Positions 3 through 11,391 of a stretch of 64,000 bases of DNA are shown piece by piece (positions within the stretch are counted from its first letter, which is position 1; every line of letters begins with the position of its first letter). The DNA comes from a virus (Duplodnaviria > Caudoviricetes): IMG/VR virus record IMGVR_UViG_3300049320_000001, positions 1-64,000 of that record; one strand, 5' to 3'. The notes below the pieces were generated by a model that worked only from the letters and a program-made list of their open reading frames with translations, did not search any database and had not been told where the DNA came from. The position numbers were made by a program, and so were the translations under genes.

Positions 3-515
3 TACGAGCAGCGCATCCTGATGACGGTCCTGGCGGACTTCATTCTCGTGGGCCACCAGGACACCGGCTCCTACGCCCTGCACACCGACAAGACCGGGAT
101 CTTCCGGTCCTCCCTCAACTCCTTCGCCAACGCCATCGCGGACGTACTCAACCGGCACGAGATCCCGCGCCTCTTCGCCCTCAACGGGTGGAAGTTGACC
201 GCGATGCCGAAGATCGTCCCGTCTGACGTGGACGCGCCTGACCTCACCGAGTTGGGTGGCTTCATCGGGGCCATGACCCAGGCGGGCATGACCTTCTTCC
301 CCGACCCGGACCTGGAGGAGTTCATCCGCTCTGCTGCCAAGTTGCCGCAGAAGAGCGAGGAGACCCTAATGCTCCAGGCCCAGGCAGAGGCCCAGAGGGC
401 TGCTCAGGAGGCGGCGTACAACGCCATGGCACAAGCAGGACTTGGTGGCCCACCCGGTGGTGGAATGGGTGGAGATCCTTCTGGGCCTCCCGAGGAAAGC
501 GAGCCCGCGCTGTGA
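3..515 (+). CDS. Portal protein, C-terminal part (5' truncated by window)
   Basis: Frame open from base 3 (YEQRILMTVLADFILVGHQ..GSYAL..FANAIADVLNRHEIPRLFALNGW) resembles DUF935-type portal C-termini; directly upstream of head genes. Confidence 0.75.
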   Translation, partial: YEQRILMTVLADFILVGHQDTGSYALHTDKTGIFRSSLNSFANAIADVLNRHEIPRLFALNGWKLTAMPKIVPSDVDAPDLTELGGFIGAMTQAGMTFFPDPDLEEFIRSAAKLPQKSEETLMLQAQAEAQRAAQEAAYNAMAQAGLGGPPGGGMGGDPSGPPEESEPAL

Positions 516-3253
516 GCGTGATGGAGTACGAGAAGCACGGTTACGCCGAGCACATCGGTGACACCCTGCTTGCAGGCATCGTGGCTCGGGACGTGTACAC
601 CCACTGGGACGATGACGTTTGGCGTAACGCCTTCATCATGGCTGTGGGTGACTACTGCGAGAACCAGGTCATCGCCCACCAGGACGAACTGAACAAGTGG
701 ATCAAGATCGCCCAGGAGAAGGCGGTCGCCAAGGCCCGTCAGTCCGTGGTGAAGGCCTACCTGGTCTCCAAGGCTGCTCAGACCAAGGTGGACCCCTACA
801 CCCGTCGTGATGGCACCCACGTCGGTGGCTACAAGCGCACCTACCGTCCTGCTCGCTCTCCGCAGCAGGAGATCCCTCGGGGTCAGTCCATGCACCCCCA
901 GGACTACAACCGCGAGCAGAGCGCTGCCATGACGGCAGCGATGGTCGAGGCCTACAACCGCAAGGTGGACCCGAAGCACCACGGGTTGCAGACCGTCGCG
1001 TACTACATCGAGGACCCGATGGGGAACCTCCGCGTGGAGACCCCGGACCCTGGTAGCACTCCGTCCCTCAAGGATGGGGAGTTCGTCCGCCGTCAGCAGG
1101 CGCTGGGCTTCCAGAACCCTGCCAACTCCGGTCAGCACGCGGTCAACCTGGCTCAGGCCTTGGGTGCCAACCACGAGAAGGCTGGCTCTGCCGGTGCTGT
1201 CGTGCAGGGTGTCTCCGACATCGGCAAGGAGCACAACTGGTTCCAGCGGCTGTCCTCCATGTCGAACGTCCTGCACCACGCCACGGGTGGTTCTGGCGGT
1301 CCTGTGCCGGTCCAGGTGGCCACGGCGATGGGTGCTGCGGTGGGCCAGCACGGTCCCGAGGTCTCTCGGGTTCTGGGGCCGTCCATCCGTCGCTACTCCT
1401 ACAAGTACCGGGGGATGACTGCCTCTCCCGCCCAGTTCAACTCCACGGCACGTTCCGGCCTCCAGGAGGGTGAAGGTGGACCACGGCAGTTCGAGGCGCG
1501 TCTACTCCACACCTTGGCTTCTACTGACAAGTCAACGGGTGGACTTGGGGCCGTGCCGACTGACGCTCAGAACGCCCTGCTGCTCCAGAGTGGCTCCACG
1601 GCCCCGTCGCAGGGCTTCCTTCTCGACGCGAAGGGCAAGGTGACCCAGCAGGCTGTCGGTCACGCGGATGACCACTACGTCCCCTTCAACCTGGCCCAGT
1701 TGCACACCCTCAAGAACGGCTCGTACGTGCGTTCGAGGGCGTACGGCGGTCCCACCACTGAGGACGTCTCCCTGGCTATGCGTAGCGGGGCACGCCGGAT
1801 CTCCACCATCTCTCGTCACGGTGTGTACACGATCGAGTTCGACCCTCGGGCGAACACGAAGCGTTACGGCTACACCCCGCGCCAGGTCGTCCACCGCTAC
1901 GGGCGGCTGCTGGATGCCATCGAGAGCGGCAAGGTCAAGGACCCCAACAACGCTGACCAGATCCTCAAGTTGGACGCAAGGGGCTACGAGGTTGCCCTCC
2001 AGTCCCTCAAGGCGCAGTACCCCCTGCTGATCGCTGAAGTCCGCCACGAGGGCGCTGGTCAGATCCCTGCTCTTGAGGGTCGGCGCGCTGGCTCTGGTGA
2101 GAGGGACACCGGTTACGTCCGCCCGATGTACCTCAAGCCCAGTGATGCCAAGGCTGGCTACCACGACGCGCTGCTCAACCCTGGTGGCTCCAAGTCCTAC
2201 GACGAGTTGGAGGGCTACCGCTCTCTGAAGGCCACTCGTCTGAAGATGGAGAAGGCCAGGGCTGAGGAGATCCGCAGGCAGGAGCAGCAGCCACGCTCTG
2301 TCGCTGTTCAGCAGCACTACCGCACAGGCGGTGTCGTCCCCATCGGGGTGGCCCAGCGCAACCCAGGTGAGGCCAACCGGGCTGAGGCTGCTGGGACTGA
2401 CACAGGTGCAGTTGTGCGTAGTTACGACTACCGCCGTGACCCGTGGAGTGCTGAGCACCACGCGGAGATGCTGGGCCACGCTGAGGCTCTGATCCGTCAT
2501 CACCTCGCCCGCTCGCAGGAGACGGGGGAGAGGCCCGACGAGTTCGCCGTCGAGTGGTACAACATCTTCAAGGGTGCCCGTAACGGCGACCCCGACATGA
2601 TCGAGAAGTTGGAGAAGGTCCGCACGGGCGAAGGTGGCCACCGCGAGGACCTGATCGACGGCCTCAACACCCTCGACCTCGATGAGAGCGCTGACGGGGA
2701 CTCGGGCCTCATCACCCACTGGCAGGGCTTCCAGGACGGGTTGATCGAGAGCGGGGACGACGAGGGCTACGTCCGCGAGGTTGACCAGCACGGCGTGGAG
2801 AGTGTCGCGTCGGTCCAGGCCGATCCCGACTGGGCTGAGGCTGAGAAGCACCGGATCTTCACCATCTGGAAGAAGGACCCGAACCTCGGTGAGGCCAAGC
2901 GCAAGCAGGTCCACGAGTGGTTCGAGGAGCCTGCTGGCGAGAACGACCTCGGCTACGAGGAGACGGAGCCCAGGGGTGCTTACTGGGACGACCCGGAGTT
3001 GGACCTGGAGTTCGCCCACGAGGATGACTTCGGGCTTGCGCTGACCCCGTACCAGCAGATGGCCAACCGGATGGCGCGGGCCAAGGGTCAGAAGCCACCC
3101 TTCAAGCCTGCGGAGGACGCTGAGCCCACTGCTGTCGAGATCGACTCAGGGGCACGGGAGGGCATGACCGAGGAGGAGTTGGACGAGGCTGCTCGCAAGT
3201 ACGCCGAGAAGCAGATCCGCGACCTTGGTGGCCTTGACGATGACTACTCCTGA
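512..3253 (+). CDS. Large head accessory protein (913 aa) with degenerate JAB/MPN-like domain
   Basis: Between portal and MuF gene; ca. 1600-1860 FLLDAKG..VG....V....LKNGSYVRSRAYGGPTTEDV..A..SG..ISTISRHGVYTIEF follows the JAB pattern but lacks HxH; acidic C-terminus. Confidence 0.6.
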   Translation: MSVMEYEKHGYAEHIGDTLLAGIVARDVYTHWDDDVWRNAFIMAVGDYCENQVIAHQDELNKWIKIAQEKAVAKARQSVVKAYLVSKAAQTKVDPYTRRDGTHVGGYKRTYRPARSPQQEIPRGQSMHPQDYNREQSAAMTAAMVEAYNRKVDPKHHGLQTVAYYIEDPMGNLRVETPDPGSTPSLKDGEFVRRQQALGFQNPANSGQHAVNLAQALGANHEKAGSAGAVVQGVSDIGKEHNWFQRLSSMSNVLHHATGGSGGPVPVQVATAMGAAVGQHGPEVSRVLGPSIRRYSYKYRGMTASPAQFNSTARSGLQEGEGGPRQFEARLLHTLASTDKSTGGLGAVPTDAQNALLLQSGSTAPSQGFLLDAKGKVTQQAVGHADDHYVPFNLAQLHTLKNGSYVRSRAYGGPTTEDVSLAMRSGARRISTISRHGVYTIEFDPRANTKRYGYTPRQVVHRYGRLLDAIESGKVKDPNNADQILKLDARGYEVALQSLKAQYPLLIAEVRHEGAGQIPALEGRRAGSGERDTGYVRPMYLKPSDAKAGYHDALLNPGGSKSYDELEGYRSLKATRLKMEKARAEEIRRQEQQPRSVAVQQHYRTGGVVPIGVAQRNPGEANRAEAAGTDTGAVVRSYDYRRDPWSAEHHAEMLGHAEALIRHHLARSQETGERPDEFAVEWYNIFKGARNGDPDMIEKLEKVRTGEGGHREDLIDGLNTLDLDESADGDSGLITHWQGFQDGLIESGDDEGYVREVDQHGVESVASVQADPDWAEAEKHRIFTIWKKDPNLGEAKRKQVHEWFEEPAGENDLGYEETEPRGAYWDDPELDLEFAHEDDFGLALTPYQQMANRMARAKGQKPPFKPAEDAEPTAVEIDSGAREGMTEEELDEAARKYAEKQIRDLGGLDDDYS

Positions 3254-5690
3254 TCTTGAGGCACTGAGCCAGCCCTACCTTCCGAATGCCTCCTCTTCTC
3301 GGGAGGTGGACATCACGAAGTCGATGGCTCAGGTGTTCCTCACTGCTGTTGTCGCGGCCAAGATCCTGGACTGGTCAGGGCTGGGTCAGAGGTGGTCGAG
3401 GTCTGGGTTCAACACGGGTGACTTCGATGTCCAGATCTCGGGCCACTTCAAGGAGGCCTTCAAGGTCGGGATGTCTGTCTTGCTGGCTGAGGCAGCCATC
3501 TACGGCATCTCCAAGAAGGGCGTGGATGTCAAGGTCGAGGACAAGGTCATTCAGGACTGGTCCATCACCTATGCCGCTCAGATCGCTGAGCAGGTCGCCA
3601 ACCAGTCCACCATGGCGGTCAGAGAGATCGTCAACGCAGGGCTGAACCAGCGCCTTCCTGCCCAGGCCCTGGCGGATCGGGCTCAGGCTGCCTACGGGCT
3701 GGACCCGAGGTCGGCCAACACCTACCAGGCCTACATGAGCAGCAAGACCCTGCCCAAGAACAGCACCCCTATCGATGAGGTGTCGGCCCTGCTTGTGCAG
3801 CGGGCGATGACCATCGGGGACGTGAACACCTTCACGGGCATCAACTTCGGGGTCCAGTTGAGCCTGATGTCCGCTCTGGGGCACGGAATCCTTCCCACTG
3901 ATGCCCGCAAGGTGTGGCTCACCGCTCTGGATGAGCGGGTCTGTCCTACCTGTGGACCGATGGACGGTGTGGCAGTCCCGGTGAACGAGGTGTTCACCAT
4001 CCTCATGCCCCTGCCCAAGACCGCGAGGGGCAAGAACCGCAAGAGCGTGGACGCCATCGTCCCGCCGATCCACCCCAACTGCCGCTGCACCATCGTCCTG
4101 GAGGACGAGTTCCTCGGCGGGTTGATCACTCGTACGGCTCGGTACGACGCTGACGCCAACCACCTGGCTCGTCTGTTCTCCGAGCCGGAAGACCTGGTCG
4201 TCCAGAAGTTCTGGGAGTCCAACAAGCACCCCCGAGACGGCAAGGGGCGCTTTGCGGAGCGCTGGGGGAACATGAGTTCTGGCCAGCGAACTACGGCTGT
4301 CTACATGGGTGGGGCAGTTGGCATTGCCAGTGGGGCCATGATCGCGGACATCAGCAATCACCTGGTCAAGATGATCAAGGGCACGACTGAGGGCAAGTCG
4401 TGGTGGGACGTCAAGTACCCGACCTACACCTACTACAAGGCTCCTGTTGAACTCCCACCTAAGCCCACCTTGGCCAAGGAGACACTCAACAGTCTCGCTG
4501 CGAGGATGAACCTTCTACCTGAGTTCTCTCTCGGTGGGTCCAATCTGATTGAACAGACTTTCAAGAACCGTGACGAAGTCGCGTACCTGAAGCATCTATC
4601 AGAAGACATCAGGCAATGGACTGGTGTGTACAGGTTCAAGTCTGGTGGTTTCTCCCTAGGTAAGTACGAGACTCTTACCGAGATGGTGGAGAACGCTCCT
4701 GTCAGCGAAGAGACCATCTATCGCGGGATCAAGGGGAAGACCAGTGATCCCAAACTCAAGAAGGCGCTGGAGGAACTGACTGGCAAGTTGAGTCTTGTCG
4801 GTGAAGAAGTAGAACTACCACTTGCCTCTTGGACCAAGAACACCGAGACAGCAAAGATCTTCGCTGACGACATCCACAAGAGCGGCATTATCCTCCAGGT
4901 GAAGGGGGCTCGGGCTCTCAACATCAGCCCGATGTCACACCATGCCGAGGCTGAATGGCTGACGACTGGTCACTTCAAGGTGGTCTCTGTCGAGGCGAAG
5001 GACGCCCGGATGGGTGGCCGACTTCTCGTCACCTTGGTCCAGGTTGCCCATGTCGTGAAGGCGATGCCGCTCAATCTCATCTACCGGGACAGGTTGGGTC
5101 GGTTCGCTGCTGCGGGGGCTGGGGTTGCCGCCATCGGTGCGGGAGCCAAGGGTGCCCACTACATGGCAGTCGAGGCCCCCATTGCTGGGCGGACTCGTCC
5201 CGAGTTGAACTCACGGCTTCAGAAGACAGACCAGCGGATCAAGCACCTTCAGACCGGGACGTACATGCTCCCGCGTTCCTACCTGGATGCTCACAGGCGT
5301 GCGTGGGGGTTCCGCATCGGTCAAGACGCCCATGTCGATGCCCTCGCTGCCAAGATCAAGGAGGAGGGCTTCAAGAGGCCCATCACCCTCCACGTCTACA
5401 ACGACCAGTCCGTCATCTGGGACGGTCAGCACCGCCTAGAGGCTGCCTACCGACTCGGTCGTAGTCGCATCCCTGTTCGCGTGGTGCGTCGGCACGAGGA
5501 CTTCGATCCCTTCCAGGAGGGGTTGCTGGGGCTGATCGAGGAGCGCCGTACCCGCAGGCTCCGGCAGGAGATCGCCCGACGTCCAAACCAGAATGTGGGC
5601 AGTCTAAAGATCGGCCAGACCCCGCGTCAGAGGATTAGCAACAACGTCAACAGGGTCTTCATCGCCCGTGGCGAGGGCCAGACCGACTAA
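3240..5690 (+). CDS. MuF/SPP1 gp7-like head morphogenesis protein fused to ADP-ribosyltransferase and ParB/Srx-like domains
   Basis: KVWLTALDERVCPTCGPMDG..PPIHPNCRCTI (MuF); IYRGI..LASWT..AEAEWL (R-S-ExE ART); VDALAAKIKEEGFKRPI..WDGQHRLEAA..L..IPVRV (ParB-N). ATG 3240 preferred over TTG 3225. Confidence 0.85.
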   Translation: MTTPDLEALSQPYLPNASSSREVDITKSMAQVFLTAVVAAKILDWSGLGQRWSRSGFNTGDFDVQISGHFKEAFKVGMSVLLAEAAIYGISKKGVDVKVEDKVIQDWSITYAAQIAEQVANQSTMAVREIVNAGLNQRLPAQALADRAQAAYGLDPRSANTYQAYMSSKTLPKNSTPIDEVSALLVQRAMTIGDVNTFTGINFGVQLSLMSALGHGILPTDARKVWLTALDERVCPTCGPMDGVAVPVNEVFTILMPLPKTARGKNRKSVDAIVPPIHPNCRCTIVLEDEFLGGLITRTARYDADANHLARLFSEPEDLVVQKFWESNKHPRDGKGRFAERWGNMSSGQRTTAVYMGGAVGIASGAMIADISNHLVKMIKGTTEGKSWWDVKYPTYTYYKAPVELPPKPTLAKETLNSLAARMNLLPEFSLGGSNLIEQTFKNRDEVAYLKHLSEDIRQWTGVYRFKSGGFSLGKYETLTEMVENAPVSEETIYRGIKGKTSDPKLKKALEELTGKLSLVGEEVELPLASWTKNTETAKIFADDIHKSGIILQVKGARALNISPMSHHAEAEWLTTGHFKVVSVEAKDARMGGRLLVTLVQVAHVVKAMPLNLIYRDRLGRFAAAGAGVAAIGAGAKGAHYMAVEAPIAGRTRPELNSRLQKTDQRIKHLQTGTYMLPRSYLDAHRRAWGFRIGQDAHVDALAAKIKEEGFKRPITLHVYNDQSVIWDGQHRLEAAYRLGRSRIPVRVVRRHEDFDPFQEGLLGLIEERRTRRLRQEIARRPNQNVGSLKIGQTPRQRISNNVNRVFIARGEGQTD

Positions 5691-5725
5691 GCGACAAGCA
5701 AGGCTCTGAAAGCGAGGCTGGTCTC

Positions 5726-7807
5726 ATGGGTGACGTGTTGAAGGCTGCGGCAGAGGCTGCGTGGAAGACTGACCCGGCCTTTCAGACAGTGGCCAAGTTC
5801 CTCTACGGCGACGATGTCGATCTTGACGAGATCATCCAGGACATCTCCAAGATGGACCCTGCTCCTGCCGACCTCCACGCTCCCGGTGTCGAGGACGATG
5901 AGGAAGAGGACGACGAGGACGAGGTCAAGAAGAAGAACGACCACCATGACGAGCACAGTGGTCGGTTCGTCTCTCGGGGCCGGAGGGCTGTCCAGGTAGG
6001 GGCCGAGGTTGGCTCGGCAGGTCTGCTGGGTGGCCTGGCTGCCTACTCGACGTACAAGTCCCCCCTTCTGGCCAAGGAGACTCTTGAGGCTGCCCGTGCT
6101 GGCCGCAAGATCAAGGCGGTCAAGGAGGGGGCTAAGACCGTTGGCCTTGCTGGTACTGGTCTGACGTCTGCCGTTGCGGCTGGGGAGAACGCCCAGGACG
6201 CTCACGACGAACTGCGGGGGCGCAAGGGGAAGCAGATCTTCGGGGTCAAGGCTGCCCGCCTTGAGGACCCTGTTCGTCTTCTGGGCGAGGCTGTCGCCAA
6301 GAACCTGATCACTCCCCAGCAGGCCATCGTCATCGCCAAGGAGTTGACCGACAAGCAGCGTCGTGGTGGTACCGCTGTCCTGTCTGGTATTGGTGCTGTG
6401 GCTGGGGCTGGTGGGTTGGCCTACGGCATCCACGACGCGAAGGTAAAGCGCAGGCTGGGCAGGAAGATCCCGCTCAAGACCAAGGCGCTGATCCCTCTGG
6501 AGATCGCTGGTCTGACGGGTGAGATTGCTGCCACCCACATCCTCCATGACGACGTGAAGCACAAGAAGCCTGTTGTAGGTGTGAAGGCTGCTCGTGACAA
6601 CCGGGACCGGGACAGTCTTAGCGCCGTTGCTGGTGGTACTGGTGTGGCGCTTGGGTCCGAGAAGGCTGCTGAGGCAGCCCGCATCAAGATGCTGGCTCGT
6701 CATACCGTCAAGGATGCAAGTCTCTACAACTTCGTTCACGCGCATGAAGGCAAAGAGTTGGCCGACATGGTGATGAACGACTCTGGCAAGAAGACCAAGG
6801 CCATCAACGCTGCTGCCAGGAAGGGTGGCAAGGCTGGTGTCGCTCTCGGTGCTACTGCCGCTGTCGCTGGTGGGGCCAAGTTGCTCCATGACGCCCACGC
6901 CAAGAAGAACTTCGACCCGGATGACCACGAGGTCACCTGGGAGGGCGAGTTCTCCAAGATCGATGAGGACAAGCGCCAGGTCTTCGGCTGGGCCTCCGTG
7001 ACGGAGATCGACGGCCAGCCCGTCGTGGACCTCCAGGGGGACTACATCCACCCCTCGGAGATGGAGCGTGCTGCTTACGACTACGTGGTCAAGTGCCGTG
7101 TCGGTGGTGACATGCACTCCCGTGTTGACGCTGACGGCAACCTGATCGAGAAGGGTGACCGTCCGCTCCACATCTCCGACATGATCGAGTCGATGGTCTT
7201 CACCCCAGAGAAGGTGGAGAAGTTGGGCCTCCCTGAGGGCTCGCTCCCCACTGGTTGGTGGGTCGGCTTCAAGGTCAACGATGACAAGACCTGGGACCTG
7301 GTGAAGAGCGGGGAGCGTCAGGGCTTCTCGATCCACGGCATGGGGGCGCGGATGGAGAAGCGCCTCGATGAGATCGGCAAGTCGAAGGACCCCATCGAGA
7401 CCTTGATCGAGAAGGCCTACGACTACTCCGACACCATCGAGGAGTTCCACGAGAACCTCGACGCGATCTACGAGCGGACCGGCCTGGAGGTCTTCAAGGC
7501 TGTCGGCACCCAGAACCGCTCTGGGTCTACCGCCCAGCGGCAGGACGCCTACGCCCAGCACTACCTCCAGCAGGCCACCCAGATGATGGCCCCGCAAGTC
7601 GCTCAGCACATCCAGCAGTTGCAGCAGCAGCAGTGGCAGATGCAGCAGATGGAGCAGCAGTCCCTCCAGAACGGTGCCCAGCAGCAGAACTGGCAGACCC
7701 TGAGCCAGATGGGTCCACGCCCTGCTTCTGGCCCGACTGGTCCTACCGGTCCCAGTGTTGGTCCTTCCGCCCCCGCTGGACCTAGTGGCCCAACTATGGC
7801 GTTCTAG
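5726..7807 (+). CDS. XkdF-like (peptidase S78-type) prohead protease with long N-terminal extension
   Basis: KIDEDKRQVFGWASV..DLQGDYI..EMERAAYDY..GGDMH..ESMVFT..GWWVGFKVNDDKTWDLVKSGERQGFSIHG; Q-rich and GPT-repeat tail. Confidence 0.85.
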   Translation: MGDVLKAAAEAAWKTDPAFQTVAKFLYGDDVDLDEIIQDISKMDPAPADLHAPGVEDDEEEDDEDEVKKKNDHHDEHSGRFVSRGRRAVQVGAEVGSAGLLGGLAAYSTYKSPLLAKETLEAARAGRKIKAVKEGAKTVGLAGTGLTSAVAAGENAQDAHDELRGRKGKQIFGVKAARLEDPVRLLGEAVAKNLITPQQAIVIAKELTDKQRRGGTAVLSGIGAVAGAGGLAYGIHDAKVKRRLGRKIPLKTKALIPLEIAGLTGEIAATHILHDDVKHKKPVVGVKAARDNRDRDSLSAVAGGTGVALGSEKAAEAARIKMLARHTVKDASLYNFVHAHEGKELADMVMNDSGKKTKAINAAARKGGKAGVALGATAAVAGGAKLLHDAHAKKNFDPDDHEVTWEGEFSKIDEDKRQVFGWASVTEIDGQPVVDLQGDYIHPSEMERAAYDYVVKCRVGGDMHSRVDADGNLIEKGDRPLHISDMIESMVFTPEKVEKLGLPEGSLPTGWWVGFKVNDDKTWDLVKSGERQGFSIHGMGARMEKRLDEIGKSKDPIETLIEKAYDYSDTIEEFHENLDAIYERTGLEVFKAVGTQNRSGSTAQRQDAYAQHYLQQATQMMAPQVAQHIQQLQQQQWQMQQMEQQSLQNGAQQQNWQTLSQMGPRPASGPTGPTGPSVGPSAPAGPSGPTMAF

Positions 7808-7867
7808 TGGACGACAATCCCACTCACCCAATGCCACGCTCCGTAACAGACGAAGGGAGGTTCAACC

Positions 7868-9922
7868 ATGGCTCGCAGGCCACGTAACGGTGTTGTGAAG
7901 CAGTTGTCGAACCTGTCCATCGATGAGGTCTCTCTAGTGGACCGGGGTGCGAACCAGCACGCCACCATCGCCATCTCCAAGCGCGCCCCCGAGGTGGAGG
8001 AGTCCTTCGAGTTCGAGAAGAAGGCAGCCCCCAAGTCTGACGCTCGGAAGTTGGCCGAACTCGGCAGTTTCCTCGCGCCTGGTGGTATCGGAGGCGCTGT
8101 TGGTGCTGGTGTTGGAGCCAAGCACCACAAGGTTGGCCATGCTGTTGGCGGCGGCGTTGGCTCTGCTGTCGGTACTTCTGTAGGCACTGCTGTAGGTGCA
8201 GCAGCCACTAAGGGCAAGGTTACTGGCGCAGTCGCTGGCGGATACCTCGGCTCTGTCGTGGGTGGTAGCAAGGGCACTCAGGTGGCTGAGGAGCACTACG
8301 CCACCAAGAAGAAGGGCTTCAAGAAGGCCCTGGACGAGATGGACCTGGACGCCCTCTTCGAGAAGAAGGAAGGCGGTTTCTGGGAGCGTCAGAAGCAGGA
8401 ACAGCGTGATGCCAACGAGTGGGTCAAGCAGACTGGCGGACCTCTAGGTGGCTACAAGGAGCGCACTCGGCAGATCAAGGCTGAGCCTAAGTACAAGGAA
8501 GGCCAGAAGAAGGGCTACCAGGCCCTTGGCCTTGAGGCTGGCGGTGTCGGTCTTGGTGTGCATGGAGCAATGCGCGGGAGCAAGCCCGAGATGGTCGCAG
8601 GCGGTGCCCTCTGGGCGGGTGGCGTTGCCCATAGCGTTCACGGGTGGAAGGACCACAACACGGCCCTCCGTAATGCACGCGAGAAGTCCCTGGCCAAGAA
8701 GAACTTCACGAAGGCGTTGGATGAGATGAACCTCGATGACCTGTTCGACGTGAGCAAGAAGGGCTCGTTCGGCCAGGGTGGGGAGCACGCTGGCGTGGAC
8801 TCCTTCTCTGGCTCCGACCCCTCGGGCATCCTCAAGGACTCCGACAAGGAGAAGAACGTTGGCCCTGATGGCAAGATTGGCGGGGTTGAGCACATCGAGG
8901 GTGAGGACACTCCCCCGAAGAAGGCTAAGAAGAAGGGTGCCTCCTCGGAGGTGAACCCCTCTGAGTTGAGCGGCCTGGGCAAGAGTGCTGACTTCTGGAC
9001 CGGGATCATCGAGAAGGTCCTGGAGGATGGCGACCAGGAGTTCATCGAGAAGCACTTCCCCGGTGGTGGCGGCAACCCGATGGACCCGTCCCAGTCGCCG
9101 TTCCCCGGTGCTCAGGGTCCTGCCATGGGTGCCACCATGCAGACCCCCGGTGTTCAGCCGATGGGTATGGGCCAGCCCACTGCACCCCCGGCTAGTGCAG
9201 GCGGAATGCCTGGTGCGATGGGTGCCCCTGGTGCCCCCACGGGTGGTATGCCTCAGCAGTTGCCCCCGGACGTTGTCGCCTACATCCAGCAGTTGGAGCA
9301 GGCCTTGCAGCAGGCGCAGGGCGGTTCTTCTGAGGGAGATAGCGACAACAGTGACGCAAGCAGCAACAGTGACAACAGCGAGAAGAAGAACCCCTTCGGG
9401 AAGTCTGGAGACTTCGGCATGGACACCAACGACCTCTTCCTCCAGGAACTGGCGAAGTCTCTGGACCAGGAAGACAACCGCGAGTTGATCGGCAAGGCCT
9501 ACGAGGCTGTCAGCAAGGCTGAGGAGCGCGCTCAGGCTGCTGAGGAGATCGCCAAGGCTGAGCGGGACCTGCGCCTGGAGCGCGAGTTCATCGCCAAGGC
9601 CGACGAGTTCAACGTCCCGGTCTCCTCCAAGGAGTTGGGTCCGGTCCTCAAGCGCCTCGCTGAGAGCGCGACCGTCGAGGACTTCCAGGTCATCGTGAAG
9701 TGCCTGCGTGGCACCAGCGAGCAGGCCAGCCTCTTCTCGGAGGTCGGCAAGCGTGGTGGCGGCGACAACGGCTCCATCCTGGACGAGGTCAACGCTCGCG
9801 CCCAGGAGTTTGTCGGCAAGGCCCTCACCCCCGAGCAGGCCGTGACGCAGGTCTTCGAGATGGACCCCCGCGCCTACGACGCCTACGTGGCCGAGCGCCG
9901 CGCCGCACGTAACTCCTTCTAA
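7868..9922 (+). CDS. Capsid scaffolding protein with inserted glycine-zipper/hydrophobic modules
   Basis: N-terminal LSNLSIDEVSLVDRGANQHATIAISKR; C-terminal coiled coil; lies between protease and cement/capsid genes. Confidence 0.7.
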   Translation: MARRPRNGVVKQLSNLSIDEVSLVDRGANQHATIAISKRAPEVEESFEFEKKAAPKSDARKLAELGSFLAPGGIGGAVGAGVGAKHHKVGHAVGGGVGSAVGTSVGTAVGAAATKGKVTGAVAGGYLGSVVGGSKGTQVAEEHYATKKKGFKKALDEMDLDALFEKKEGGFWERQKQEQRDANEWVKQTGGPLGGYKERTRQIKAEPKYKEGQKKGYQALGLEAGGVGLGVHGAMRGSKPEMVAGGALWAGGVAHSVHGWKDHNTALRNAREKSLAKKNFTKALDEMNLDDLFDVSKKGSFGQGGEHAGVDSFSGSDPSGILKDSDKEKNVGPDGKIGGVEHIEGEDTPPKKAKKKGASSEVNPSELSGLGKSADFWTGIIEKVLEDGDQEFIEKHFPGGGGNPMDPSQSPFPGAQGPAMGATMQTPGVQPMGMGQPTAPPASAGGMPGAMGAPGAPTGGMPQQLPPDVVAYIQQLEQALQQAQGGSSEGDSDNSDASSNSDNSEKKNPFGKSGDFGMDTNDLFLQELAKSLDQEDNRELIGKAYEAVSKAEERAQAAEEIAKAERDLRLEREFIAKADEFNVPVSSKELGPVLKRLAESATVEDFQVIVKCLRGTSEQASLFSEVGKRGGGDNGSILDEVNARAQEFVGKALTPEQAVTQVFEMDPRAYDAYVAERRAARNSF

Positions 9923-9951: not shown

Positions 9952-10359
9952 ATGGCGTACGAGGAAGTTCTCCAGAGCATCACCCTGGATGCTGACGCTT
10001 CCATCGGCGTCTTCACGGGTGTTGCTGGTCTCCGTGGTGCTCCTGCTAACCAGAGCGCCCTCCAGTACCGCTTCGTGAAGATCACCGGTGAGCACATCGC
10101 TGGCTTGGTCTCGGCCACGTCGGACGCCGTTGTGGGTGTCCTCCAGAACAAGCCCCAGGCTGTCGGTGACGCGGCCACGGTCGCTATCGGCGGCATCTCC
10201 AAGGTCGAGGCGGCTGGTGCCATCGCGGCTGGGGCTCCGGTGTACACCGACGCAACTGGTCGGGCCACCGCAACGGTCGCTGGCTCGCTCATGGGCTACG
10301 CGATCCACAGCACTGCCGCTGCGGGAGAACTCGCAACTGTCCTCCTCCGGCTCAAGTAA
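9952..10359 (+). CDS. Capsid cement/decoration protein (DUF2190-like)
   Basis: GVLQNKPQAVGDAATVAIGGISKVEAAGAIAAGAPVYTDATGRA; immediately upstream of capsid; strong RBS. Confidence 0.8.
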   Translation: MAYEEVLQSITLDADASIGVFTGVAGLRGAPANQSALQYRFVKITGEHIAGLVSATSDAVVGVLQNKPQAVGDAATVAIGGISKVEAAGAIAAGAPVYTDATGRATATVAGSLMGYAIHSTAAAGELATVLLRLK

Positions 10360-10395: not shown

Positions 10396-11391
10396 ATGAA
10401 CCCCACCCAGAGCGACCTGCACGTCAGTCAGCCGCTCACCAACATCTCGATTGCGTACATGCAGTCGTCCGATGCCTACATCGCAGACAAGGTCTTCCCT
10501 GTCGTCCCGGTGCAGAAGCAGTCGGATCTGTACTGGAAGTACCTCAAGAGCGAGTGGCGTCGTACGGACGTCGAGAAGCGTGCGCCGAGCACTGAGACCC
10601 CTGGTGTCGGCTGGCACGTCACCACGGACTCGTACTTCGCGTCCGTCTACGGCGTCCACAAGGACATCGATGACCAGTTGCGTGCGAACGCGGACTCCAA
10701 CTTCTCGCTGGACCGCGACTCCACCAACTTCGTCACCAACCAGTTGCTCCTCAAGCGGGACATCGACTGGAACAACAAGTACTTCAAGACGAGCGTCTGG
10801 GCACGTGACCGTGCTGGCGTGACCGGCACCCCGACTGGTCTCCAGTTCAAGCAGTGGGACCAGGCTGGTAGCACCCCGATCGAGGACGTCACCGCCGAGA
10901 TCATCCAGTTCCGCCAGAACACGGGCTACGCCCCGAACGTCATGGTGGTCGGTGCCTACGTGCTCCAGGCTCTGCGTAACCACGCTGAGATCCTGGACCG
11001 CATCAAGTACACCGAGCGCGGCATCGTGACCGAGGACCTCATCGCCTCCCTCTTCGGGGTGAAGAAGTTGCTGGTCACCTACGCCACCTACACCACCACC
11101 CCGGAGTTCCAGAACCCGCTGACGACGGACTCCAACGCCACCTACGCCTTCATGGGTGGTGGCAAGAGCGCCCTGCTGGCCTACAGCCCGGAGCGCCCGT
11201 CGCTCATGGAGCCTGCGGCTGGCTACACCTTCACGTGGAACGGCTACCTGGGCGGCAACGCCAAGGGCATCCGCATCAAGACCTTCCGCATGGAGAACAT
11301 CGCCTCCGACCGCATCGAGGGCGAGATGACGTACGACATGAAGGTTGTCGCTGCTGACATGGGCACCTTCTGGTCCGCAGCCGTCGCGTAA
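10396..11391 (+). CDS. Major capsid protein (HK97 fold, lambda gpE-like family)
   Basis: SDLHVSQPLTNISIAY..IADKVFPVVPVQKQSD.Y..; PN.MVVG..V..AL..H; 331 aa; highly biased codon usage. Confidence 0.9.
   Translation: MNPTQSDLHVSQPLTNISIAYMQSSDAYIADKVFPVVPVQKQSDLYWKYLKSEWRRTDVEKRAPSTETPGVGWHVTTDSYFASVYGVHKDIDDQLRANADSNFSLDRDSTNFVTNQLLLKRDIDWNNKYFKTSVWARDRAGVTGTPTGLQFKQWDQAGSTPIEDVTAEIIQFRQNTGYAPNVMVVGAYVLQALRNHAEILDRIKYTERGIVTEDLIASLFGVKKLLVTYATYTTTPEFQNPLTTDSNATYAFMGGGKSALLAYSPERPSLMEPAAGYTFTWNGYLGGNAKGIRIKTFRMENIASDRIEGEMTYDMKVVAADMGTFWSAAVA

Follow-up and report, generated by a model that had tools for sequence, protein, structure and literature searches.

Why should the head genes of a phage be two to three times their usual length, and what joins the parts of the proteins that they encode? 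Both questions are raised by a single 81,654-bp viral contig (Caudoviricetes; IMG/VR record IMGVR_UViG_3300049320_000001), of which bases 1-64000 form the DNA analysed here (hereafter the window) and bases 3-9922, on the plus strand, the region examined. The genes of this region make up the head-morphogenesis module of a novel siphovirus-like phage of 82 kb, whose host is probably high in GC, and run in the order portal, a 913-aa post-portal protein (P0001), a MuF-ADP-ribosyltransferase (ART)-ParB protein (P0002), an XkdF-type prohead protease (P0003), a scaffold (P0004), cement and capsid (Table 1). An original prediction, made from the DNA alone, had held that these head proteins are oversized, and phage KPP23 bears this out: with the same capsid type and gene order, it encodes a MuF protein of 325 aa followed by proteins of 236 and 356 aa, versus 816-821, 693 (P0003) and 684 aa (P0004) in the window. 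As their sequences read, three of the head proteins (P0001-P0003) are extended by cassettes joined by a short Arg/Gly motif, of which the window carries the "HPRD..GRF" variant, and this module of cassette and junction explains the length of the head genes found here.

A short motif at the cassette borders of head proteins

The Arg/Gly motif is real and non-random. Its strict core, [RH][DE]xxG[RK][FW], has an expectation of 0.11 occurrences over the 26,767 residues of the whole-genome open reading frame (ORF) translation and was found twice, both times in P0002 and at domain borders; a third copy, in P0003, lies outside the strict core, because its acidic residue and Gly stand one residue further apart. 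Behind every copy in the window, a Gly/Ala-rich stretch sets in within 3-15 residues. What had been predicted to be hydrophobic helices behind the copy in P0003 turned out to be such a stretch, with a Kyte-Doolittle hydropathy of only 1.0-1.6, and since stretches of this moderate hydropathy follow every motif, we rejected membrane cargo and regard them as more likely spacers. The motif may thus be written as a hydrophobic/charged lead-in, [H/R]-[D/E]-x-x-G-R-[F/W] and a Gly/Ala/Ser-rich spacer, a form that would make it a portable short linear motif.

In P0002, residues K328, R337, G341 and R342 of the copy after the MuF domain are invariant in 8/8 homologues, the only eight that were found among 5.8 billion clusters. 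The architectures of these proteins differ exactly between motif copies. The phage studied here and P0009 have MuF-[motif]-ART-[motif]-ParB (with a second copy that reads P-R-D-N-D-G-K-F in P0009), P0006-P0008 have MuF-[motif]-ART followed by another region, and P0010-P0012 have MuF-[motif]-ParB, so that, without the ART, motif 1 runs directly into the spacer and ParB. P0010 and P0011 continue from ParB through V-G-K-L-F-D-P-S-E-E-R-D-S-L-G-R-W to a GNAT-like domain. The motif also precedes the ART cassette in the unrelated proteins P0015, P0019 and P0021.

A comparable pattern is seen in the protease gene. At the position of motif 3, the relatives aligned with P0003 (alignment A5) read I-x-K-S-R-x-Y-V-R-D-H-A-G-[RK]-F. 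Where a decayed A-R-D-N-R-D-R-D-S stands in the window, two contigs of the closely related group L154-L157 (L156 and L157) show a second copy, R-[DN]-x-x-G-[RQ]-F, and the protease proteins of L154 and L156 hold an extra cassette behind an extra F-G-K-Y-N-P…G-R-F copy. In P0001, a site reading VSKA…RRDG can be identified as a decayed copy of the junction motif because it aligns with the HPR..GEF copy of L154 and L156, which reads V-[SE]-K-A-E-W-x-E-R-L-H-P-R-x-x-T-G-E-F, with K87 and A88 invariant (alignment A8). Overall, the homologue alignments, with cassettes gained or lost between motif copies, agree with the predicted modular build of the head proteins and its common junction grammar, and the predicted position of the Arg/Gly motif at cargo-domain borders was recovered in the window, in close relatives and in hundreds of viral contigs.

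Variants and distribution of the motif

Thirty-two IMG/VR contigs with a related XkdF protease carry copies such as E-K-A-N-P-Y-H-D-E-R-G-R-F-T-S, which stand behind the MuF sequence H-P-N-C-R-C, open scaffold-position proteins, and begin several small genes in a row. We searched IMG/VR for the variants by a degenerate DNA pattern (NPYHDxxGRF) and a GC-rich pattern (HPRDxxGRF). The first was present in at least 120 stretches, versus a handful expected by chance on a rough estimate, with at least 204 in-frame copies and up to seven per ORF. Two contigs (L118 and L127) have single ORFs of 2,597 and 2,811 aa with seven K-F-N-P-Y-H-D-x-x-G-R-F copies each. Across 144 non-redundant contexts, the upstream positions, which were not fixed by the search, are V/I/L at -4 (69%), K at -2 (78%) and F/A/Y at -1 (81%), and the downstream ones T/A/S at +10 (97%) and T/S at +11 (82%), followed by G/A/S-rich sequence. 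This widespread sister variant is therefore [VIL]-x-K-[FAY]-N-P-Y-H-D-x-x-G-R-F-[TS]-[TS], and many of its carriers start with M-(A)-K-T-F-x-E-I-[IL]-E-K-[FAY]-N-P-Y-H-D…, a lead-in that also occurs internally.

For HPRDxxGRF, too, at least 120 IMG/VR stretches were found; its conserved positions are W/F at -5 (71%), E/P at -3 (86%) and L/K at -1 (73%), and motif 1 of the window fits this logo at both -5 and -1. The charged site upstream is thus conserved as [VIL]-x-K in the NPYHD variant and as [WF]-x-E in the HPRD variant, and from the two logos we infer that the variants, when aligned on Asp, would share hydrophobic-x-[K or E]-x4-[H/R]-D-x-x-G-R-F. Very large proteins of a distinct family, many of them 1100-1800 aa long, open with M-A-G-[IV]-G-x-x-W-G-[TS]-R-E-E-L-L-H-P-R-D-x-x-G-R-F-R-x-x-W-K-M (in L159, L161, L166, L173, L175, L178, L192, L198, L208, L218 and L233), and the HPRD motif is therefore also the N-terminal header of a conserved giant protein of GC-rich phages.

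Pfam scans of 71 and 75 carrier ORFs returned one coherent domain repertoire, made up of head domains (portal of three families, MuF, XkdF, S78 and DUF2213) and of ART (12 and 14 members), Zeta toxin, 2H phosphoesterase, NUDIX, Acb1, Gln-amidase, LPD3 and DUF6321. Overall, at least 240 viral stretches have the motif in front of or between unrelated domains, and the window has it there three times. A motif tied to XkdF only was rejected: among the matches listed, XkdF was found at 28/119 NPYHD loci and S78 or DUF2213 at some others, and because head modules with S78 or DUF2213 also carry it, the motif is not an XkdF-specific site.

When motif peptides were compared with GenBank phages, only the portal gene of a Nitrososphaera provirus and one uncultured prohead protease record matched, and no motif-carrying phage with published proteomics was found in this comparison; the rarity of the motif among cultured phages in GenBank may explain the lack of proteomic data. 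The provirus, Pro-Nvie1 (FR725450.1 5635-5748), is thaumarchaeal and carries the motif in its putative portal gene, so that the motif is not confined to viruses of bacteria. In the sequences tested, the motif matched no model of Pfam or NCBIfam, PDB profile searches with A1 yielded nothing useful, and the motif is not described in the papers on polyvalent proteins, MuF toxins and polymorphic toxins or in those found by a literature search on motif strings. A capsid-targeting or processing signal on polyvalent cargo is of a known kind, and the signal itself appears to be undescribed.

Cargo domains of P0002

P0002 consists of a MuF anchor and two effector-type domains, flanked by portal, protease, scaffold, cement and capsid genes. 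Its likely start is ATG 3240 (the ORF opens at TTG 3225), and an identical database protein of 816 aa carries PF04233 and PF02195. The full-length AF2 (AlphaFold2) model is too poor for use, with a predicted local distance difference test score (pLDDT) of 48 and only the MuF part above 70. The ART cassette (aa ~445-612) has only 11 relatives among 1.84 billion representatives, and its identity, already proposed from the DNA, is supported by profile A4, which matches the arginine-specific ART Vis (4xzj, E=7e-4) and HopU1, by the triad Y-R-G, S-x-T and E-x-E, invariant and in order in A4, and by the homologues P0014, P0018 and P0022, which match Pfam ART/ADPrib_exo_Tox over the same stretch. The ParB label holds as well, with PHROG ParB families matching at E-values down to 3.6e-7, PF02195 on the identical protein, and D-G-Q-H-R present. 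No immunity gene of the MuF-toxin type stands beside P0002, which is separated from P0003 by a 35-base gap and overlaps P0001, with no small ORF on the same strand.

A prohead protease of the gp21 fold

The XkdF-type label first given to P0003 was upheld by a Pfam match well above the cutoff (62.5 bits for PF14550 versus 24), by conserved His and Ser residues and by the fold modelled for a relative. His464 (GDMH, 7106-7117) and Ser535 (GFSI, 7322-7333) are invariant in A5, and over 41 sequences the His is invariant and the Ser at least 90% conserved. An AlphaFold model of L134, a 31%-identical relative, has a pLDDT of ~77-95 in its protease part, and compared with 48,161 chains (VIA-wide) it best matched T4 gp21 (5jbl_A, Z 7.9, root-mean-square deviation 3.0, 103 aligned residues), followed by the proteases of varicella-zoster virus (Z 5.8) and human cytomegalovirus (Z 4.4); Foldseek alone gave only a weak match to gp21. 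The XkdF domain, as modelled, is folded like gp21 of T4 and the proteases of herpesviruses.

The Gln-rich tail of P0003 (7580-7627) and the middle of the scaffold (9254-9301) share a segment of 48 nt, or 16 aa, at 71% DNA identity, which reads …P-x-V-x-x-[HY]-I-Q-Q-L-[QE]-Q and suggests a shared coiled-coil element for co-assembly.

Hydrophobic-x-Lys strings

All four proteins had been described as punctuated by hydrophobic-x-Lys, and the 19 strings listed for them (19/19), as well as the three GRF motifs, are indeed found where the original prediction placed them. Counts of [VILF]-x-K were compared with 2000 shuffles of each protein, and no enrichment was seen in P0001 (10 versus 7.7 expected, p=0.23), P0002 (12 versus 12.1, p=0.58) or P0003 (15 versus 10.9, p=0.11), whereas P0004 has 22 versus 11.1 expected, a value that 0/2000 shuffles reach (p<0.0005), at offset 2 only. 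The expected difference between head and tail does not appear for P0001-P0003 either, with the large tail protein, at 26 versus 19.5 expected, similar to these non-enriched head proteins. The punctuation thus stands for P0004, and a generic hydrophobic-x-Lys signal in all four proteins was rejected by shuffling for P0001-P0003; most of the 19 strings are chance or composition noise.

The post-portal protein, the scaffold and the surrounding genes

P0001 is separate from the portal gene and translationally coupled to it, the portal stop codon overlapping the GTG start of P0001 (GTGA, 512-515), and the same holds in L154-L157. We rejected P0001 as the portal itself, since the portal ends at base 515 and P0001 has no similarity to the KPP23 portal. 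P0001 had no match in Pfam, PHROG, NCBIfam or PDB-profile searches (including with the profile of A8), relatives of its core (aa 257-550) were not detected in Pfam, PHROGs or PDB, and its ESM Atlas model is uninformative (pLDDT 0.40). The core (1280-2160) has an invariant D-D-H-Y-V-P-F-N-L…S-Y-x-R-S-R…G-G-P-T-T-E-D; compared with the metal site E…H-x-H-x7-S-x2-D of JAB domains, to which it had been likened, the conserved stretch reads R-S-R…P-T-T-E-D at the position of H-x-H…S-x-x-D. Residues 267-550 match the C-terminal extension of ~1300-aa ORFs that stand at the portal position in distant contigs (43% over 130 aa) and are presumed to be portal fusions. In the distant relatives L003, L004, L010 and L017, a single ~1300-aa ORF apparently combines portal and P0001 core, and the version of L010 ends in an AAA ATPase. 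The core of P0001 is an uncharacterised head-module domain common to these presumed portal-fusion ORFs, and its arrangement is probably a split-or-fusion polymorphism of a portal extension.

In 12 related contigs, the ORF that precedes the cement and capsid genes opens with the conserved N-terminus of the scaffold as well. Scaffolds of this group (the window, L006, L008, L009, L015 and L022-L030) begin …I-D-E-[VI]-S-L-V-D-x-x-A-N-Q-H-A…I-A-K-[RS], a strand-like motif that, we assume, resembles the C-terminal "EVSLV..PAN" of HK97-type S78 proteases and might complement or dock on the XkdF protease. The scaffold alignment has invariant islands (IAKRAP, V-x-KK-x-SFG, LGKS, FGKS, LAKS) amid variable low-complexity sequence. 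The scaffold uses a different junction of its own, with a cassette placed between two copies of its own linker; homologues in L154, L156 and L157 have one linker copy and no insert, and the insertion is specific to this phage.

Neither the DNA of the region nor P0002 had a match among 50,697 GenBank phage records (megablast, tblastn). Only the capsid protein matches GenBank phages, at ~42% identity over its full length, in KPP23, RSP (Pseudomonas), Rhizobium phages and some Arthrobacter phages. L154-L156 have a Portal_Mu-type portal of 488-499 aa at the same place, and in L154-L157 the MuF protein measures 546-837 aa, the XkdF protein 812-1023 aa and the scaffold 571-582 aa.

Table 1. Features of the head module and the evidence for each (aa, amino acids).
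Feature	Position	Strand	Evidence or remark
Portal, C-terminal end (170 residues)	3..515	+	phrog_113, E=3.9e-26; gene start at opposite contig end
P0001, 913-aa post-portal head-module protein, fold unassigned	512..3253	+	homologues (904-961 aa) at same place in L154-L157
Decayed junction-motif copy in P0001 (VSKA...DPY.RRDG)	764..814 (VSKA 764, RRDG 803-814)	+	alignment A8
P0002, polyvalent minor head protein MuF-motif-ART-motif-ParB	3240..5690	+	Pfam Phage_Mu_F; PHROG head morphogenesis and ParB
MuF (SPP1 gp7-like) domain ending in HPNCRC	3438..4109	+	phrog_2468, aa 72-291, E=6e-12; PF04233, E=1e-6 (curated cutoff); TIGR01641
Junction motif 1, V-Q-K-F-W-E-S-N-K-H-P-R-D-G-K-G-R-F	4200..4253 (GRF 4245-4253)	+	invariant K328, R337, G341, R342
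R-S-E type ADP-ribosyltransferase cassette	4560..5048	+	YRG 4719-4727, S-W-T 4827-4835, E-A-E 4947-4955
Junction motif 2 (V-V-K-A-...-Y-R-D-R-L-G-R-F) and Gly/Ala-rich spacer	5052..5150 (VVKA 5052, GRF 5097-5105)	+	
ParB/Srx-like nuclease-type domain (DGQHR 5421-5435)	5307..5504	+	PHROG ParB-like families, E down to 3.6e-7; PF02195
P0003, 693 aa: N-terminal module, motif, Gly/Ala-rich region, XkdF protease, Gln-rich tail	5726..7807	+	
Junction motif 3, V-K-K-K-N-D-H-H-D-E-H-S-G-R-F	5924..5968 (VKKK 5924, GRF 5960-5968)	+	H77, G79, F81 invariant (A5)
XkdF-type (Peptidase_S78_2) prohead serine protease domain	6950..7360, aa 409-544	+	PF14550, E=5e-17, 62.5 bits versus cutoff 24
P0004, 684-aa scaffold-like protein	7868..9922	+	phrog_13547 at C-terminus; precedes cement and capsid genes
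Conserved scaffold N-terminus (…IDEVSLVDRGANQHA…I-S-K-R)	7901..7984	+	invariant in A6
~150-aa scaffold insertion, duplicated linker F-x-K-A-L-D-E-M…L-F-x-x-x-K-K at borders	8306..8761	+	A-L-D-E-M at 8327, 8714
Cement/decoration protein	9952-10359	+	phrog_673
Major capsid protein, lambda-gpE-type, without delta domain	10396-11391	+	phrog_122

A candidate signal for capsid loading and processing

What might such a junction do? The reading that we favour, with a confidence that stands halfway between doubt and acceptance, takes the module as a capsid-loading and processing signal analogous to the capsid-targeting sequence (CTS) of T4 and served by the gp21-fold prohead protease, with the cargo freed inside the capsid and leaving with the DNA. 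The module would dock the attached domain into the core of the assembling procapsid, as the T4 sequence does; the protease would then trim at the hydrophobic-x-Lys (or hydrophobic-x-Glu) site that adjoins the module; and cargo such as the ART and the ParB nuclease-like domain would end as separate internal proteins that exit with the DNA. Docking, cleavage and ejection are what we infer from the motif, its conservation, its place at cassette borders, the identity of its carriers and the fold of the protease. Cleavage is favoured because the motif stands at every junction of multi-cassette proteins, where one targeting tag would suffice, because its hydrophobic-x-K or hydrophobic-x-E lead-in is conserved, and because the protease domain is commonly followed, 30-55 residues on, by a copy. 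That the XkdF protease cuts after Lys, as originally predicted, is plausible but unproven, and no paper giving the cleavage specificity of the XkdF-type family was found in the literature.

Several observations weigh against this reading. Conservation of the upstream Lys does not extend to the HPRD variant (18% at -7), which has Glu or Pro at the equivalent position, and within this clade the spacing from Lys to core ranges between 3 and 7 residues. Some copies stand at extreme N- or C-termini, where cutting would release no domain, and on portal and MuF proteins, which have their own anchor in the head, a targeting tag should be superfluous. That one core recurs beside differing portal, capsid and protease families is surprising if the peptide binds a phage protein that evolves fast, and in an AF2 model of a protein with both XkdF and motif, the motif stays undocked (pLDDT <50).

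Some of these points would be accommodated if the motif were purely a docking peptide, which binds a conserved interior surface of the procapsid (shell, scaffold or portal) or DNA while the proteins stay uncut. The cargo-loading peptide of encapsulins is a short linear peptide on a flexible Gly-rich linker that directs diverse enzymes into an HK97-fold shell; it differs from the motif in sequence, is unprocessed and belongs to a non-viral context. Placement of copies at N-terminal, internal and extreme C-terminal sites is typical of a position-independent linear motif, several copies would give avidity, the Lys upstream of HPRD lacks conservation, and the virion RNA polymerase of phage N4 is packaged unprocessed (PMC5512222). 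Yet a docking tag would be redundant on portal and MuF fusions and at each of the seven junctions of one protein, the K at -2 and hydrophobic residue at -4 are strongly conserved in the NPYHD variant, and the motif often follows the protease domain by the distance noted above, where protease and scaffold are usually separated, so that we consider docking by itself unlikely.

Lower still in our estimate is a motif that acts after ejection, in the host cell, either to release or activate effectors through a host or phage factor or as a signal for threading through the tail. The near identity of the core across unrelated portal, capsid and protease families, the portal of the Nitrososphaera provirus included, suggests a universal partner, and Iyer et al. 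considered post-injection processing of polyvalent proteins (PMC5512222). This is hard to reconcile with the proteases and the scaffold-position ORFs of related contigs, which carry the motif and are not expected to be ejected, or with the restriction of carriers to head modules. To our knowledge, moreover, no host factor for the motif has been reported.

Least probable is a motif of no specific function, a conserved linker edge that spreads with its cassettes by recombination beside hydrophobic-x-Lys strings that are noise: the lack of generic hydrophobic-x-K enrichment in P0001-P0003 would fit, as would cassette gain and loss exactly between copies, which recombination between repeats would give, but the motif is conserved at the protein level with degenerate codons in hundreds of otherwise unrelated contigs, is strongly conserved position by position inside variable, disordered linkers, and has decayed copies beside maintained ones, which imply selection where it is kept.

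Comparison with known systems

The closest parallels to a loading and processing signal come from phages in which packaged proteins are trimmed. In T4, CTS propeptides of 10-19 residues direct IPI-III and the ART Alt to the core of the prohead, after which gp21 cleaves them off at I/L-x-E (PMC9026906; bioRxiv 10.64898/2026.03.04.709575). Like the CTS, the motif is a short peptide common to otherwise unrelated head proteins, including an ADP-ribosyltransferase, it adjoins a hydrophobic-x-charged site in a module whose protease has the gp21 fold in a relative's model (Z 7.9), and it is apparently an evolutionary device for loading varied cargo. Unlike the CTS, which is an N-terminal propeptide confined to T4-like phages, the motif is longer and of another sequence, with the core [H/R]-D-x-x-G-R-F, is also internal and repeated between polyprotein domains, and occurs in many phage lineages. 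In giant phages (SPN3US gp245, phiKZ, 201phi2-1), ejection proteins and portal are trimmed at [A/S/G]-x-E by a gp21-like protease (PMC10052503). Their propeptides hold several copies of that motif, like the repeated motif described here; [A/S/G]-x-E serves to remove N-terminal propeptides, with neither the G-R-F core nor the polyprotein junctions found here.

Packaging has been predicted for effectors fused to MuF, portal or head peptidase (PMC5512222, PMC9503650). With MuF, ART and ParB in one protein among late head genes, P0002 resembles the polyvalent proteins (Iyer 2017, PMC5512222; 2022, PMC9503650; Jamet 2017, PMC5576092), in whose network ART, DdrB-like ParB and MuF are hub domains, and the carriers of the motif share this domain repertoire. 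Those papers propose autoprocessing by a metallopeptidase, a domain that is lacking here, and P0002 also differs from MuF toxin loci (PMC5576092) in having no adjacent immunity gene.

Implications for phage-delivered effectors

It is tempting to go further and speculate that [H/R]-D-x-x-G-R-F is a near-universal, portable load-and-process code of tailed viruses of bacteria and archaea, independent of capsid, portal and protease family, with polyvalent proteins being polyproteins that are cut at their junctions. We put this forward as a possibility that is more likely wrong than right. If it were true, adding the ~25-residue module to any protein would be enough for its packaging and its delivery along with the genome. 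The effectors that phages deliver, among them ARTs, nucleases and enzymes directed against cyclic oligonucleotide-based antiphage signalling systems (CBASS) and other signalling, are central to the phage-host arms race, and how they enter capsids, outside T4 and the giant phages, is a question that a peptide code makes experimentally simple. Such a code would let packaged effectors be predicted from sequence, and would offer a general means of bringing proteins into phage capsids.

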